A stretch of DNA of 16,468 nucleotides from a virus (lineage: Duplodnaviria > Heunggongvirae > Uroviricota > Caudoviricetes): IMG/VR virus record IMGVR_UViG_2690316184_000007. One strand, given 5' to 3'. Under the pieces are notes generated by a model. It was not told the DNA's origin. It worked only from the letters and a program-made list of their open reading frames with translations, and did no database searches. How positions within the stretch are numbered: position 1 is the first letter of the stretch; the number at the start of each line of letters is the position of its first letter. The position numbers and the translations under genes are program-made. Below, in pieces: positions 1,382 to 16,468 of the stretch.

Positions 1382-3067
1382 GTGAATATAAACGTCGCCG
1401 AATTGTTAAATGGGAATTACATTCTGTTATTATTTGTGGTCCTCGCGCTTGGGCTATGTCTCGGAAAGTTACGACTTGGTTCGATCCAACTGGGTAATTC
1501 CATTGGCGTTTTAGTCGTATCGCTGTTATTAGGCCAACAACATTTCAGCATTAACACCGATGCGCTTAATCTTGGCTTTATGCTGTTTATTTTCTGCGTC
1601 GGGGTCGAAGCCGGACCGAACTTTTTTTCCATTTTTTTTCGCGATGGGAAAAATTACCTAATGTTAGCACTGGTGATGGTTGGCAGTGCGCTGGTGATCG
1701 CCTTAGGGTTAGGTAAGCTGTTTGGCTGGGATATTGGCCTGACGGCCGGTATGTTAGCAGGCTCTATGACGTCGACACCGGTTCTGGTCGGTGCTGGCGA
1801 TACACTGCGTCATTCCGGCATGGAAAGCAGGCAGCTCTCACTGGCACTGGATAATCTGAGCCTCGGGTATGCCTTAACCTATTTAATCGGTCTGGTGAGT
1901 TTGATTGTTGGTGCGCGTTACTTGCCGAAATTGCAGCATCAGGACTTACAGACCAGCGCCCAGCAAATCGCCCGCGAACGTGGCCTGGACACTGATGCCA
2001 ACCGTAAGGTTTATTTACCGGTGATCCGCGCCTATCGCGTCGGCCCGGAACTGGTGGCCTGGACCGACGGCAAAAATCTGCGTGAACTGGGTATTTATCG
2101 ACAAACCGGCTGCTACATTGAACGTATTCGACGTAACGGGATTCTGGCAAATCCAGACGGTGATGCCGTGCTACAAATGGGCGATGAAATAGCGTTGGTA
2201 GGCTATCCCGACGCCCATGCCCGACTCGATCCCAGCTTCCGTAACGGTAAAGAAGTTTTCGATCGTGACCTTCTCGACATGCGTATCGTCACTGAAGAAG
2301 TGGTCGTTAAAAACCATAACGCTGTAGGTAAACGTCTCGCACAACTGAAGTTGACCGATCACGGTTGCTTCCTTAACCGCGTCATTCGTAGCCAGATTGA
2401 GATGCCGATAGATGACAACGTCGTGCTTAACAAAGGTGACGTTTTACAAGTCAGCGGCGATGCCCGCCGCGTAAAAACCATCGCCGATCGCATCGGCTTT
2501 ATCTCGATTCACAGCCAGGTCACTGACCTGCTGGCATTCTGCGCCTTCTTTGTTATTGGGCTGATGATCGGGATGATCACCTTCCAGTTCAGCACATTCA
2601 GTTTCGGCATGGGGAACGCTGCCGGGTTGTTATTCGCCGGAATTATGCTGGGCTTTATGCGTGCTAACCACCCGACCTTCGGTTACATTCCGCAAGGTGC
2701 ATTAAGCATGGTGAAAGAGTTCGGCTTGATGGTGTTTATGGCAGGCGTTGGTCTGAGCGCCGGTAGCGGTATTAATAACGGCCTGGGCGCGATTGGCGGT
2801 CAGATGTTGATTGCCGGATTAATTGTCAGTCTTGTGCCCGTGGTTATCTGTTTCTTGTTCGGTGCTTATGTATTGCGAATGAACCGCGCACTGTTGTTCG
2901 GCGCAATGATGGGCGCACGCACCTGCGCGCCGGCAATGGAGATCATCAGTGATACAGCTCGCAGTAACATCCCTGCGCTGGGCTATGCGGGCACCTACGC
3001 AATCGCCAACGTCCTGCTGACGCTGGCAGGGACAATCATCGTCATGGTATGGCCAGGATTAGGATAA
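1382..3067 (+). CDS. ybjL: Putative transporter YbjL (AspT/YidE/YbjL family), 561 aa
   Basis: 561-aa ORF from a GTG start. N- and C-terminal hydrophobic halves flank a soluble central region (about residues 190-370), the architecture I recall for the YidE/YbjL family. Length matches E. coli YbjL. Confidence 0.85.
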
Positions 3068-3179
3068 AACTGAAGTTGCCCTGAAAATGAAATTTTTTTG
3101 CACAACCGCAGAACTTTTCCGCAGGGCATCAGTCTTAATTAGTGCCACTGCTTTTCTTTGATGTCCCCATTTTGTGGAG

Positions 3180-3222
3180 CCCATCAACCCCGCCATTTCG
3201 GTTCAAGGTTGATGGGTTTTTT
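3180..3222 (+). terminator. Hairpin plus T-run, possible ybjL terminator or part of the prophage attachment region
   Basis: Inverted repeat CCCATCAACC / GGTTGATGGG (10 bp each) around a 17-nt loop, then TTTTTTG on the + strand. The long loop and the ~110-bp distance from the ybjL stop make assignment uncertain. Confidence 0.4.
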
Positions 3223-3302
3223 GTTGCCTGAAATTTATGCCTTTTAAAATCATGATGTTAGAAGCACTGTTTTTTAACGATGGCGACAAAATGGCGGCAG
3301 CG

Positions 3303-3521
3303 TCAAAGAGAGAGCGCCACCTGTCCTGATTTCATTGGATGCGGCTGAACCGGATTTGACTCTTTTGGCGTTGCAATCGAACGAACAAAAGTTTCATGGG
3401 TAACAAAAGTATGGCTGCAGTTAATGTTCTGGCACTGGTTGTAACGCTCTTTGGTCAATGAAGATACCTGAAAACTGCTGCGAGTATGGGCGGCACTTCC
3501 ACACAGTGGGCAAATCATCAT
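3303..3521 (-). CDS. ogr: Ogr-type zinc-finger late-gene transcription activator, 72 aa
   Basis: MMICPLCGSAAHTRSS...KERYNQCQNINCSHTF... shows the Cys4 pattern (CPLC ... CQNxNC) and length of P2 Ogr and sits immediately downstream of D as in P2. Start taken at the internal ATG, not the ORF-track start at 3554. Confidence 0.85.
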   Translation of the reverse strand: MMICPLCGSAAHTRSSFQVSSLTKERYNQCQNINCSHTFVTHETFVRSIATPKESNPVQPHPMKSGQVALSL

Positions 3522-4712: not shown

Positions 4713-5194
4713 GACAGCAGCCCTCCCACCGTTTTACTGATATCGCTTAAGGCAGACGTTGCCGTATCCTGCAAATTATTCAGCTGCGCACTGAGATCAC
4801 CGAACATATCGGACAGGGATTCATCCACCCGTTTGAGCGACAGGGTAAACTCAATCCGGCGCGGCATACCATCGCGGAAAAACTCCGTTTTAGTCTGATT
4901 CAGTCCCTCAATCACATACATGCCGTAAATCGTGCCGCTGCCTTCAATCAGAGGCCATGCTTTCCCCTGTTCTGCCATCTGCTCCAGTGCCAGCAACGAC
5001 AGCCTGCCGCCTGTTATCTCCGGCATAAGAACACCGGAAAGCGTCAGCATGTCGTTGTCCGGTCCCAGAAACTGCGTGGACGGACGACGATTTACCCGGC
5101 TGTTAGCCGCATGTCGCCAGCTGCGCTGATACTGCAGTTCCTGATACGGCACGGTGCGCAGCATAAACACGTACAATCCCAGCACCATCATCAT
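4709..5194 (-). CDS. U: P2 gpU-like tail protein, 161 aa
   Basis: 161-aa ORF between the T remnant and D with ATGA overlaps at both ends; size and position match P2 gpU. Confidence 0.8.
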   Translation of the reverse strand: MMMVLGLYVFMLRTVPYQELQYQRSWRHAANSRVNRRPSTQFLGPDNDMLTLSGVLMPEITGGRLSLLALEQMAEQGKAWPLIEGSGTIYGMYVIEGLNQTKTEFFRDGMPRRIEFTLSLKRVDESLSDMFGDLSAQLNNLQDTATSALSDISKTVGGLLS

Positions 5195-5646
5195 GCGTCG
5201 TATCCCCCCTGATCGCTGTAGTTACTCCTGGCTTTTGCCTTCAGCCTGCGTTCACGTTCATCAAGCTGGCGGGCCACCTCCCGCGCAATATCCTGCGCAC
5301 TTTGTCCTGGCTGCGTCTGAATAATGATCTGCGTCGGTGCCTCAATCCGTTGAGCGGGCGGCACAGTGGCTGCACGACTCACCATTGCTTCACCGCCTTT
5401 CGTGGGAAGTGCCAAAGGATGCAACGGTGGAAGCTCTGCTGGCGCGGCAGCAACACCCATCATTCCGGCAACAACGGCAGCCAGTGCAGCTGTATTTCTC
5501 CGGCTGGTCACATTTGCCGGGCCGTTAACAATTTCCGGCCCGTTTTCACCGACGATGCCAAACTGCCCGCGCGGGATATAGCCGCCGCTGTCATACATCC
5601 CCGCAAAGCCATATCCCCATGCCCGGTTATCTTTCTGCCATCCCAT
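5191..5646 (-). pseudogene. T: 3' remnant of the tail tape-measure gene T (C-terminal ~150 codons only)
   Basis: Reading frame overlaps the U start by ATGA as T does in P2, but an in-frame stop lies at 5656-5658 and the upstream DNA encodes a portal fragment on the opposite strand. Gly/Ala-rich C-terminal sequence is typical of tape-measure ends. Confidence 0.65.
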
Positions 5647-6122
5647 CCGCTTTGCTCAACGAGTCCGCCACGCTGTTCCGCCGCAAGTATTACATCAACG
5701 GCAGCCATGCAGGCTTCATCATGTATATGACCGATGCCGCGCAGAATCAGGAGGATGTGAACAATCTCCGCAATGCGATGAAAAGCGCCAAAGGCCCTGG
5801 CAACTTCCGCAACCTGTTTATGTACTCGCCTAACGGCAAAAAGGACGGGATTCAGATCATCCCGTTGTCAGAAGTCGCGGCGAAGGATGAGTTTCTGAAT
5901 ATCAAAAATGTCAGCCGCGATGACATGATGGCAGCGCATCGTGTGCCGCCGCAAATGATGGGGATTATGCCGAATAATGTTGGGGGGTTTGGGGATGTGG
6001 AGAAGGCAAGTAATGTATTTGTTCGTAACGAACTTATCCCCTTACAAAAACGTATCGAACAATTAAATCAATGGATAGGAAACACAATTATTAATTTTTT
6101 ACCATATTCTCTCCAAAGTTAA
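5619..6122 (+). pseudogene. Q: 3' fragment of the portal gene Q (C-terminal ~150 codons)
   Basis: Translation ...RVPPQMMGIMPNNVGGFGDVEKASNVFVRNELIPLQKRIEQLN... is recognised as the C-terminal region of P2-type portal proteins. The ORF is about half the full portal length and has no plausible upstream continuation. Confidence 0.65.
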
Positions 6123-6162: not shown

Positions 6163-6780
6163 TTACCAGTTAAAAATTGATGAGCTGCGAATTGCAGGAA
6201 CATCCGATGGATTTCGTTTAGCAGCTGGTTCCATCAACTTACGCTTATTAAATGCCTGATCAATATAATACTCAGGATTTTTAATAAAGACAGAGTATTT
6301 TACCAATGCACAATATACGTCAGAGTCATTATAATGGGGAACTGTTTTTTCATAAACATGATTCTTTCTAACCAGATAAGGCAAATAATAATCATATCCC
6401 AAACCTGGCGTTCTTAGACTTATAGAACATCCGCATGATGGATCTGCACATACTGCAGGAGTAAACACACTGTCGTAAATTTCATCTCTGATAACACCAA
6501 TTAGACCATTATAGTTTTCTCCCCAGAGTGATGCTTGAATTTCAGTGTTTACAAATGGACGATTTTTGGTTTCCGTTCCAATAAGAACGACAGTAACCGT
6601 TGAGTCTTTTAAAAAATCCTCACGAATAGTCCTCATTATTGTTTCATCAGTGTTAGTTGTACTAATGTCACCATCACTTACCGACTTATCAATAAACGAT
6701 TCTCCTCCGAATAAATCAATAATCTCATCTTTGAGATCTTGTTCGTTAGCATGATGATAACTAAGAAACGTCTTATGCAT
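6163..6780 (-). CDS. TIR-like domain protein, ThsB-like (DUF1863 / PF08937-type), 205 aa
   Basis: N-terminus MHKTFLSYHH... and the core STVTVVLIGTETKNRPFVNTEIQAS resemble the B. cereus ThsB pattern as I recall it (VFFSFHY ... VTCVLIGSQTFNRRWVRYEI), including a Glu at the expected catalytic position (E80). Start ATG overlaps the upstream gene's stop (TAATG). Strongly AT-rich relative to flanking prophage DNA. Confidence 0.7.
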   Translation of the reverse strand: MHKTFLSYHHANEQDLKDEIIDLFGGESFIDKSVSDGDISTTNTDETIMRTIREDFLKDSTVTVVLIGTETKNRPFVNTEIQASLWGENYNGLIGVIRDEIYDSVFTPAVCADPSCGCSISLRTPGLGYDYYLPYLVRKNHVYEKTVPHYNDSDVYCALVKYSVFIKNPEYYIDQAFNKRKLMEPAAKRNPSDVPAIRSSSIFNW

Positions 6781-7511
6781 TATTCACTCCATTTATCAAC
6801 ATTTATATCAAACTCTTTGACTACCTTATCATTGAAGAAATCGTTTACTTCTTTAAAACCTTCCAATACTTGACTAAAATGATAATAATGCTTTTGTATA
6901 ATACTTATAGGGGTTAAATGATACGGCAATGATATAAATTCGCCGTTAGGGTCTCTATCCTTTGTGGTCACTTTATCATGATCTGAAACATATTTATGCC
7001 ATCTCCGATAATTATTTTGATGTTTTGTTAAAAAAGAGTTTAAGGTTTTCAAAATTTCATTTGAAAGTAAATACAGTTTTTTATCTCTTTTTTTCTTCAC
7101 ATCTAGTAATTTCATTTCATCTCTAATGAATTTATAGCACTCATAATATGAGTTTAAAACTTCTTCAATTGAGTCATAATTCGGATCAAATTTAAATAAT
7201 GTTCGCTTCGTATCCAGATAATTTTTTACGCTCTTTTTAAAAAGAAGATCAGACTTATTTAGTAAAATATTAATACCACCAAAACTAAGTTGCTCCAATC
7301 TCAATGAATATCTTTGATGAAATGCACCGACCAGCAAGATATAAGCAACTAAAAATAGTATTAATACTGATAAAAAAGCACGAATTATGCTTACATTTGA
7401 CATGAAATTAACTATAAACCACCATTTTTCAAACGGTGAAAACGGAATGCTCCCCATGATAATAAGTAGAAGAACAAAGATACAACTCCATAAAACCCAC
7501 AATCTGTACAT
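6780..7511 (-). CDS. Membrane protein with two N-terminal transmembrane helices and a ~150-aa Lys/Tyr/Asn-rich C-terminal domain of unknown function; first gene of the TIR operon
   Basis: ORF-track frame extends to a TTG at 7556; I prefer the ATG at 7509-7511 (MYRLWVLWSCIFVLLLIIMGSI...), preceded by AAAAAGGA. Hydrophobic helices at about residues 4-22 and 50-75 of the ATG-start protein. The C-terminal domain has no Gly-rich Macro motif and no SIR2-like motif I can see. Confidence 0.6.
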   Translation of the reverse strand: MYRLWVLWSCIFVLLLIIMGSIPFSPFEKWWFIVNFMSNVSIIRAFLSVLILFLVAYILLVGAFHQRYSLRLEQLSFGGINILLNKSDLLFKKSVKNYLDTKRTLFKFDPNYDSIEEVLNSYYECYKFIRDEMKLLDVKKKRDKKLYLLSNEILKTLNSFLTKHQNNYRRWHKYVSDHDKVTTKDRDPNGEFISLPYHLTPISIIQKHYYHFSQVLEGFKEVNDFFNDKVVKEFDINVDKWSE

Positions 7512-7886: not shown

Positions 7887-8120
7887 TTAATGCAGCCAGC
7901 TGTCGTCTTCCCACACCTTCTGCATAATTTTCATCACTCGTTTTCTTTCTTCGTCCAGTTGCAGTCCGGTCAGTTCCACACCGTTAGAGCTACCTTTGCG
8001 GATACGAATTACCGTTTTGGGATACAGGGGGCGCAGATTGCGGTAAAGCTCGGATTCAAGGGCGTCCAGGGTAGACTGGCTAATCTTCTGCTCTTTATCG
8101 ATCATTATTTCAATGCGCAT
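7887..8120 (-). CDS. DinI-family protein, 77 aa
   Basis: MRIEIMIDKEQKISQSTLDALESELYRNLRPLYPKTVIRIRKGSSNGVELTGLQ...VWEDDSWLH parallels E. coli DinI (MRIEVTIAKT...ALAGEL...) in length and pattern. Start taken at the internal ATG 8118-8120, preceded by GGTGA. Confidence 0.7.
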   Translation of the reverse strand: MRIEIMIDKEQKISQSTLDALESELYRNLRPLYPKTVIRIRKGSSNGVELTGLQLDEERKRVMKIMQKVWEDDSWLH

Positions 8121-8130
8121 AAAAGTCACC

Positions 8131-8319
8131 TCAATTGATGACATCCATTGAGCGGTTGTATTCGTGGGTTCTGATTTTTGCCATGAGTTCATCTGTCAGT
8201 TCAGAAACCCACTGCAGGGCCAGCCCCTTCTCTTCATCACTACACTCACTAGCCGCTACAAGCTTAAGAAAAAAATCAATGCGCTGGAGCTTCAAAGACT
8301 CCAAAAAATAGTCCTGCAT
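8131..8319 (-). CDS. Small acidic hypothetical protein (62 aa), first gene of the LexA-controlled operon; possible Tum-like antirepressor module
   Basis: Internal ATG at 8317-8319 preceded by a strong TAGGAGGAAAG Shine-Dalgarno; stop 10 nt upstream of the DinI-like start. No motif recognised. Confidence 0.5.
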   Translation of the reverse strand: MQDYFLESLKLQRIDFFLKLVAASECSDEEKGLALQWVSELTDELMAKIRTHEYNRSMDVIN

Positions 8320-14105: not shown

Positions 14106-14327
14106 CTAATTAAGGTTTAGATTGCATTCTGAAAGCGCATCAACGGTCATGGCTGCTATGTTGATCATCACTTTTTCACGTTTTTTATCTTTGCGCAGAC
14201 GGTGACGGATAAGGCGTCCGTCAGCCAACATGTCATTGATGGTATCGATGGACAGCCCTGTCAGCTCGCTATAGCGTTCAATAGTCACATGAGGCGTGGT
14301 AAGAGTGATTGAAATGTTAGGTCTCAT
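14106..14327 (-). CDS. apl: Apl/Cox-type small DNA-binding protein (excisionase/transcriptional repressor), 73 aa
   Basis: First gene of the early operon, divergent from cI; helix-turn-helix-like segment [21 protein letters not shown]; basic C-terminal region. Confidence 0.6.
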
Positions 14328-15415: not shown

Positions 15416-16468
15416 ATGGCAGTACGAAAACTCACCACAGGAAAATGGCTTTGCGAATGTTACCCCGCCGGACGTAGTGGGCGTCGTGTGCGTAAACAAT
15501 TCACCACCAAAGGCGAAGCTCTGGCTTTTGAGCGCCATACGATGGAAGAAACCGAAGCAAAGCCCTAGCTGGGAGAATCAGTGGATCGTCGAACACTGAA
15601 AGACGTGGTTGAGCTATGGTTCAAACTACATGGTAAATCTCTAACCGCTGGGCAGCATGTCTATGATAAATTGCTGTTGATGGTTGACGCTCTGGGCAAT
15701 CCCCTTGCAACCGATCTCACCTCTAAAATGTTTGCCCACTATCGAGATAAACGCCTGACAGGTGAGATCTACTTCAGCGAGAAATGGAAGAAAGGAGCAA
15801 GCCCGGTCACCATTAACCTGGAGCAAAGCTATCTAAGTAGTGTTTTTAGCGAACTATCCCGCCTGGGCGAATGGTCGTATCCAAACCCACTGGAGAACAT
15901 GCGAAAATTCACCATCGCAGAAAAAGAGATGGCATGGCTTACCCATGAGCAGATTGTTGAACTGCTGGCTGATTGCAAACGTCAGGACCCAATTCTGGCA
16001 CTGGTAGTCAAGATATGCTTAAGCACAGGCGCACGCTGGCGAGAAGCAATAAACCTTACCCGATCACAGGTGACTAAATACCGAATTACCTTTGTAAGAA
16101 CGAAGGGGAAGAAAAACAGAAGCATCCCTATCAGTAAAGAGCTTTATGAAGAGATCATGGCGCTTGATGGGTTCAATTTCTTCACAGACTGCTATTTTCA
16201 ATTTTTATCCGTGATGGAAAAAACGTCAATCGTGCTCCCTCGCGGTCAACTGACACACGTTCTGCGCCATACGTTTGCGGCGCATTTCATGATGTCGGGT
16301 GGAAATATCCTTGCTTTGCAAAAAATCCTCGGACATCACGATATAAAAATGACTATGCGTTACGCTCATCTGGCACCGGATCATCTGGAAACGGCGCTCC
16401 GTTTCAATCCTCTGGCAACGCTGCCAAGTGGCGACAAAGTGGCGGCAGCGGTTGGCATTACCCCGTAA
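15416..16468 (+). pseudogene. int: P2-type tyrosine integrase interrupted by an in-frame amber codon
   Basis: ATG at 15416 (after GGAGGG) opens MAVRKLTTGKW...RRVRKQFTTKGEALAFERH, matching the P2 Int N-terminal arm-binding region. TAG at 15566-15568 lies in the same frame as the downstream 295-codon ORF, which carries catalytic motifs (LSTGARWRE, HVLRHTFAAHF, MRYAHL). The stop TAA is the last three bases of the window. Confidence 0.8.

Follow-up and report, generated by a model that had tools for sequence, protein, structure and literature searches.

The attR junction of a 186/Fels-2-type P2-family prophage lies in the terminator tail of the small RNA gene rybB in Escherichia coli

The rybB insertion site is already known, having been described several times since 2011, and the mechanism considered here is not new. 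For three P2-type prophages, Rybb*W of E. coli W, Rybb*B of E. coli B, and Rybb*Cr of E. coli Crooks, the listed insertion site is the 'rybB ncRNA' (Archer et al., PMC3032704), a Felsduovirus was placed at defence hotspot #29, 'within the small RNA rybB' (PMC10121019), and Kpn38RybB is a Klebsiella prophage at rybB (PMC4048246). PhiECO1, PhiECO2, PhiECO3, and PhiSEN1 share one integration-site identity, the hosts of the first three being E. coli HS, ATCC 8739, and CFT073, respectively (Nilsson et al., PMC3448106). The published left coordinates of PhiECO1 (in HS) and PhiECO3 (in CFT073) were checked and lie immediately after rcdA. Searches for ybjL or ybjK together with attB returned no relevant literature; the literature on this site is indexed under rybB.

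Integration at the 3' end of RNA genes (tRNA and tmRNA) is a classical strategy of phages, and the same logic is followed at this locus. Phage 186 resembles the prophage described here in its arm-type consensus with sites on both arms and its Apl excisionase, and its core-flanking IHF sites may have a counterpart in the IHF-like motif of this prophage; in both, the lysogenic-operon terminator adjoins attP and the 3' end of a host RNA gene is carried by the phage, the gene being rebuilt upon integration. The target of 186, however, is the tRNA-Ile gene ileY at its 3' end and not an sRNA terminator, its common core is 36 bp as opposed to 14 bp here in E. coli, and the RNA-gene fragment, which runs from int towards ogr here, has the opposite orientation in 186. 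Fels-2 and SopEPhi, likewise of the P2 family, use the 3' end of a stable RNA gene as attB, namely, ssrA (tmRNA) (PMC3448106), and P2-type prophages listed at the cyaR sRNA locus use the 3' end of a regulatory RNA gene (PMC3032704, Table 2), but integrase specificity and core sequence in these elements differ from those of the rybB prophage. P2 itself has another type of arm site, tgTGGaCa. With the published rybB prophages and phages the element described here shares the rcdA-ybjL site, the core, an ogr-proximal attR, and a near-identical integrase (that of phage KP12); unlike the published rybB prophages, the copy analysed here is a remnant, reduced to 13.3 kb by deletion, whose int contains an amber codon. 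We consider it very probable (roughly 95%) that the locus as a whole consists of the rybB terminator on the host side, an attR core at positions 3212 to 3225, and the P' arm of a 186-type prophage beyond it.

The DNA analysed, referred to below as the window, is a stretch of 16,468 nucleotides of the E. coli chromosome that differs from strain ACN002 at 2 bases; about a dozen other isolates, mostly avian, match the window save for the same two bases. The interval under study, positions 3068 to 3302 (235 bp), is flanked by a host gene and a prophage gene and contains the junction between host and phage DNA, as follows.

1382 to 3067, plus strand: host gene ybjL, which encodes an aspartate:alanine antiporter and lies upstream of the site (ORF list; RefSeq annotation of the near-identical locus of strain ACN002)
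3212 to 3225, plus strand: att common core ATGGGTTTTTTGTT, 14 bp, identical in attB, attR, attL, and attP (five-way alignment)
3226 to 3238, plus strand: phage-derived extension of the core, GCCTGAAATTTAT, identical to E. coli attB ATCTAAAACTTAT at 9 of 13 positions
3303 to 3521, minus strand: ogr, encoding a late-gene activator with an Ogr/Delta zinc finger; no prophage gene lies closer to attR (Pfam PF04606, E = 5e-22; annotation)

In K-12 BW25113 the spacer between ybjL and rcdA is 174 bp long and free of prophage. Its sequence was identical to the window from ybjL through the GTT that ends at position 3225; to the right of 3225, K-12 reads ATCTAAAACTTAT up to the rcdA stop and the window reads GCCTGAAATTTAT, which agrees with the enterobacterial consensus after rybB. 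Because of the residual 9/13 similarity to the right of the core, megablast matches of empty sites extended to window position 3238 in most genomes. Host DNA ends at 3225 (or at 3238 when imperfect homology is included), so that the boundary lies between 3225 and 3226, in the tail of the rybB terminator. Positions 3068 to 3225 are host DNA holding a putative sigmaE-type promoter and the complete rybB gene, and positions 3226 to 3302 are the P' arm in the attachment site of a 186/Fels-2-type P2-family prophage. An initial annotation of this DNA had given the ybjL stop as 3067 and the end of ogr, on the minus strand, as 3303, both of which agree with the ORF list, and had placed the att site between them, where the core is indeed found. 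It had also taken host synteny to stop at the ybjL stop and the interval to be plain intergenic DNA; in fact, a further 158 bases of host sequence follow, and they include a putative promoter and a whole sRNA gene.

The features of this host segment are the following.

3110 to 3137, plus strand: putative sigmaE-type promoter of rybB, read from the sequence, with -35 AGAACTTTT at 3110 to 3118, -10 GTCTTA at 3132 to 3137, and +1 at 3144
3144 to 3222, plus strand: rybB, an intact gene for a sigmaE-dependent, Hfq-binding sRNA of 79 nt (Rfam RF00110; exact 79-nt sequence at 3144)
3178 to 3222, plus strand: RybB intrinsic terminator, with stem 3178 to 3189 / 3207 to 3218, a 17-nt loop, and T6 at 3217 to 3222

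The Rfam RybB model (RF00110) matched positions 3147 to 3225 on the plus strand over its entire length (model positions 1 to 79 of 79) with a score of 105.3 bits (E = 3e-21; gathering score, 40), and this was the single match above threshold when the whole window was scanned with Rfam. The gene is identical to the sequence at the empty site of K-12. It lies in the spacer between ybjK (rcdA) and ybjL, on the ybjL strand, in agreement with the published location of rybB (PMC1804206), and a sigmaE-dependent RNA of about 80 nt that ends in a T-run has already been published for E. coli and Salmonella. When compared with the published sigmaE motifs (-35, GGAACTTTT; -10, GTCAAA; the rybB promoter is described in PMC1804206), AGAACTTTT matched at 8 of 9 positions and GTCTTA at 4 of 6, and the spacing to position 3144 was correct; this sequence match suggests that positions 3110 to 3137 are the sigmaE promoter of rybB.

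At the 3' end of the gene, positions 3180 to 3189 and 3207 to 3216 form a perfect inverted repeat (10 nt per arm, 100% complementary, 17 nt apart). The corresponding RNA was folded into a 12-bp stem with a small inner stem of 3 bp (minimum free energy, -24.1 kcal/mol; z = -2.5 compared with dinucleotide shuffles), and the Rfam consensus structure of RybB has the same stem of 12 pairs and the same 17-nt loop, followed by a U-run. A simple terminator scan made no call at this hairpin because it accepted only loops of 3 to 8 nt. Hairpin and T-run are the Rho-independent terminator of rybB. The initial annotation had noted the 10-bp perfect inverted repeat with its T-run at 3180 to 3222, and these positions proved exact; its suggestion that the hairpin could be a host terminator overlapped by the att core was likewise correct, as the core takes in the last 5 bp of the descending arm together with the T-run. 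The description of the hairpin as unusual was wrong, since it is the ordinary conserved RybB terminator according to the Rfam consensus, and to read it as the terminator of ybjL was at best incomplete: it does act as a terminator, but one that belongs to rybB.

The common core ATGGGTTTTTTGTT comprises the last 5 bp of the terminator stem and the U-tail. The window contains a single copy (at 3212), as does the K-12 empty site; the full locus contains two, one at each end of the prophage. The second copy, at position 33944 of locus L001, corresponds to window position 16543, 75 bp past the window end. Since the final base of int is also the final base of the window, attL was read from the near-identical locus of ACN002, in which it reads ...cattaacccgtttacataaATGGGTTTTTTGTTatctaaaatttatcta... 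and is followed by rcdA. These two comparisons, with an empty site and with the direct repeat beyond int, were the ones proposed in the initial annotation, and they gave the core at 3212 to 3225. We also searched 5,426 complete E. coli genomes with an empty-site probe of 101 bp. A full-length match, indicating an uninterrupted site, was obtained in 4,224 genomes (~78%), and intact attB was thus missing in ~22%. Elsewhere the probe was split into attR-type pieces, whose last matching position was 52, and attL-type pieces, whose first was 39; the overlap of 14 bp corresponds to ATGGGTTTTTTGTT. The junction ybjL-rybB-ogr-D was present in 1,115 complete E. coli genomes (~21%).

The alleles flanking the core were also compared. 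Phage and host differ at four positions to the right of the core; attR has the phage allele at all four and attL the host allele. To the left of the core, attL carries phage sequence. This pattern places both strand exchanges inside positions 3212 to 3225, assuming that mismatches were not corrected, and the points of cleavage would accordingly fall within these 14 bp. Two other candidates were discarded. A C/T difference in the attL flank (AAAATTTAT in ACN002 and AAAACTTAT in K-12), considered as a marker of the crossover, is a host polymorphism, because an empty E. coli site (L073) also has the T. A 7-bp inverted repeat of attP, CATAAAT ... ATTTATG, was set aside as a pair of core-type sites, since its arms are 19 bp apart and the repeat is absent from attB.

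The uninterrupted attP was found in free phage. In Klebsiella phage KP12 (OM835953), a contiguous attP is located between int and ogr (L004, 1370 to 1600) and consists, in this order, of the int stop, two AACTTATTGTTTT repeats, the hairpin AACCCGTTTAcataTAAATGGGTT, the shared T-run, GTTGTCTGAAATTTATGCCG..., the arm repeats, and ogr. It equals the left of attL joined to the right of attR, base for base. The phage-side hairpin was folded with -9 kcal/mol, and its descending arm and U-tail are the core; therefore, rybB (at attR) and int (at attL) both keep complete terminators. The attR of Klebsiella phage 4LV2017 is annotated at the same bases, with a length of 19 bp; the identity between attP and attB is 14 bp in E. 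coli, as opposed to the 19 bp annotated in Klebsiella. The AACTTATTGTTTT direct repeats, which lie between the int stop and the phage hairpin (L001, 33893 to 33925, 40 to 70 bp beyond the window; L004, 1449 to 1483), are candidate Apl or IHF sites by analogy with 186, in which Apl sites flank attP.

Sequences resembling binding sites for integrase are found on both arms, and one resembling an IHF site is found on the P' arm, as follows.

3248 to 3260, plus strand: IHF-like site AATCATGATGTTA (WATCA-N5-TTR) of the P' arm, in the stretch between core and arm sites (motif match)
3278 to 3299, minus strand: P'-arm pair of tandem arm-type sites for a 186-type integrase, TGTCGCCATCG at 3278 to 3288 and TGCCGCCATTT at 3289 to 3299, forming a direct repeat
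16426 to 16447, minus strand: P-arm pair of tandem arm-type sites, TGTCGCCACTT and TGCCGCCACTT, within the int 3' end

In the record of phage 186 the arm-type consensus is YAYCGCCAYTY and such sites flank the core on both sides; the arm site of the 186-type group has been reported as tgccGCCActt (Nilsson et al., PMC3448106). We used YRYCGCCAYTY, a relaxed form of the 186 consensus, which occurred in the 16.5-kb window only at 3289 to 3299, 16426 to 16436, and 16437 to 16447; three occurrences were reached in none of the shuffled sequences (0/200). The copy at 3278 to 3288 is more degenerate and does not match YRYCGCCAYTY. The motif WATCA-N5-TTR had only 3 occurrences in the window, both strands included, and the IHF-like site differs at one position from the textbook IHF consensus, WATCAANNNNTTR. 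In phage 186, IHF footprints are present on both sides of the core of attP; positions 3248 to 3260 may likewise be bound by IHF, as judged from the motif.

The spacing of these sites was compared among genera by scanning for the rybB terminator in one genome per species, which yielded 93 enterobacterial rybB loci. Of these, 15 were clearly empty, with rcdA close by, and a further 6 (Klebsiella sp. R390, Shimwellia, Kluyvera, Serratia fonticola, Silvania, and Enterobacter chinensis) had a homologue of ogr no more than 600 nt away. The P' arms of these six rybB prophages are otherwise divergent, with Ogr identities of 56 to 90%. Arm sites were nevertheless located at +58 and +69 from the T-run in all six, and the IHF-like motif at +26 in five of the six, in each case as in the window. 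We also considered whether CCGCCATTT, a stretch of the terminator loop (3190 to 3198) that is perfectly complementary to the P'2 site (3289 to 3297), is a hidden arm-type site. This candidate was rejected and the complementarity was judged a coincidence, because few rybB loops contain CGCCAYT (21 of the 93 enterobacterial loops), the occupied loci from other genera included (2 of 6).

The genes for recombination are encoded at the other end of the prophage.

14106 to 14327, minus strand: Apl/Cox-like excisionase-repressor (PHROG 575, E = 6e-31)
15416 to 16468, plus strand: int, a 186-type tyrosine integrase gene, here a pseudogene (translation; TGG>TAG at codon 51, base 15567; A30T, base 15503)

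A CI repressor is also encoded in the prophage. Both changes in int (A30T and the amber codon at W51) are G>A compared with all 15 best-matching complete genomes. The product of the intact allele contains the Pfam domains Int_N and Phage_integrase and is identical to the KP12 integrase at 349 of 350 residues (99.7%) and to that of phage 186 at 56% of 334 residues. The initial annotation had asked which integrase specificity serves this locus; the answer, which is also in the literature, is a 186-type (Fels-2 group) integrase that targets the 3' end of rybB. Within the remnant, the tape-measure gene (T) has lost its N-terminal part and is fused to an oppositely oriented partial portal gene (Q), with the joint at about 5619 to 5622 (window, about 5191 to 6122); all head, lysis, baseplate, fibre, sheath, and tube genes, roughly 20 kb, are gone. 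Being both a deletion remnant and the carrier of an amber codon in int, the element cannot move by means of its own integrase. At least 80% of the whole window was found in only 73 genomes.

Other genes of the remnant were noted in passing. Beside the portal fragment, in the usual position of defence genes in P2, two cargo genes are located at 6166 to 6780 and 6780 to 7511, both on the minus strand. One of them encodes a ThsB-like TIR protein (Pfam PF08937, E = 1e-14; PADLOC ThsB); its partner encodes 243 amino acids with two N-terminal hydrophobic helices and had no match in Pfam, PADLOC, PHROGs, or NCBIfam. The pair could be a Thoeris-like system with an undescribed effector. Upstream of the gene for the replication endonuclease are a gene of the DinI family (Tum-like; 7887 to 8192, minus strand) and a small ORF. 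The SOS operon of 186 is arranged likewise, and by this analogy the arrangement suggests that the parent phage was SOS inducible. A different occupant of rybB was seen in E. coli EcPF15 (L003, 6001 to 12664), in which the P' arm breaks off at the point corresponding to window position 3263. Unrelated hypothetical genes come next and then capsid genes of the P2 type, and both ogr and D are missing; the element has the look of another occupant that has decayed or recombined.

Three other explanations of the locus were weighed. The most plausible among them, although still unlikely, is that the crossover takes place in 3226 to 3238 or that the functional core is a block of ~27 bp whose mismatches are tolerated in E. 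coli: phage GCCTGAAATTTAT resembles E. coli attB ATCTAAAACTTAT at 9/13 positions, it equals the host sequence after rybB in most other Enterobacterales, and the 19 bp annotated for the attR of 4LV2017 also exceed the 14-bp core. Against this, attR has the phage allele and attL the host allele at every differing position beyond 3225, which, barring mismatch correction, places both exchanges to the left of 3226, even though core-type binding of Int probably extends into 3226 to 3238. It is quite improbable that the hairpin is only the terminator of ybjL, in an otherwise plain spacer, and that the phage targets the terminator of a protein-coding gene. The hairpin does share its strand with ybjL, whose stop lies 111 nt upstream of it, and would be met by transcripts reading through from ybjL, but this explanation is at odds with the full-length covariance match to RybB (105 bits), with a putative sigmaE-type promoter at the right distance, and with the publication of rybB in the ybjK-ybjL spacer (PMC1804206). 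The two roles are compatible, and read-through from ybjL may also stop at the rybB terminator.

That the boundary arose by secondary rearrangement during decay of the prophage, and is not a site-specific att junction, is hardly credible. Such an origin would fit with a prophage that has been rearranged (the fusion at ~5619 to 5622) and whose int has been inactivated. The same junction, however, is found in 1,115 genomes, among them genomes with full-length prophages (PhiECO1 to PhiECO3), and it matches the attP of free phage base for base.

For site-specific integration into the rybB terminator, the following course is proposed. The attP of the phage carries the terminal 11 to 14 bases of rybB (ATGGGTTTTTTGTT, the 3' end of the stem plus the U-tail), and in the phage the same segment serves as the descending arm of the int terminator. 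Int would be positioned by the four arm-type sites, one pair in the 3' end of int and the other next to ogr, with the DNA bent at the IHF-like sites, and would exchange strands within the 14-bp block of identity. Integration thus restores the rybB sequence at attR, leaves int with its terminator at attL, and would be expected to have no effect on RybB.

The sequence following the terminator was conserved beyond E. coli. The 13 bases after the RybB T-run, RTTGCCTGAAATT (window region 3223 to 3238), were conserved in 54 of the 93 enterobacterial loci (for example, L014, L024, L029, L031, L050, L063, L095, and L115) and were present in empty sites of several genera. Loci with this block include some with different, co-varying terminator stems, and the spacer beyond the block could not be aligned. 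In the phage, RTTGCCTGAAATT makes up the core's right half. E. coli is an outlier that has GTTATCTAAAAYTTAT in its place, and for this reason the identity between attP and attB is limited to 14 bp in E. coli. One speculative explanation, which we regard as doubtful, is that RTTGCCTGAAATT is kept uniform by recurrent integration and loss of phages (exchange of core sequences between attL and attR) and not by a host function; the alternative is a host function that has gone unrecognised. If recurrent integration and loss were the cause, GTTATCTAAAAYTTAT of E. coli would be a partly escaped attB.

For the annotation of E. coli genomes, the value of these results is that an 'intergenic' interval of 235 bp holds the gene of a well-studied envelope-stress sRNA. 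The 14-bp core, in turn, allows precise delimitation of a very common prophage and defence-island site of E. coli.
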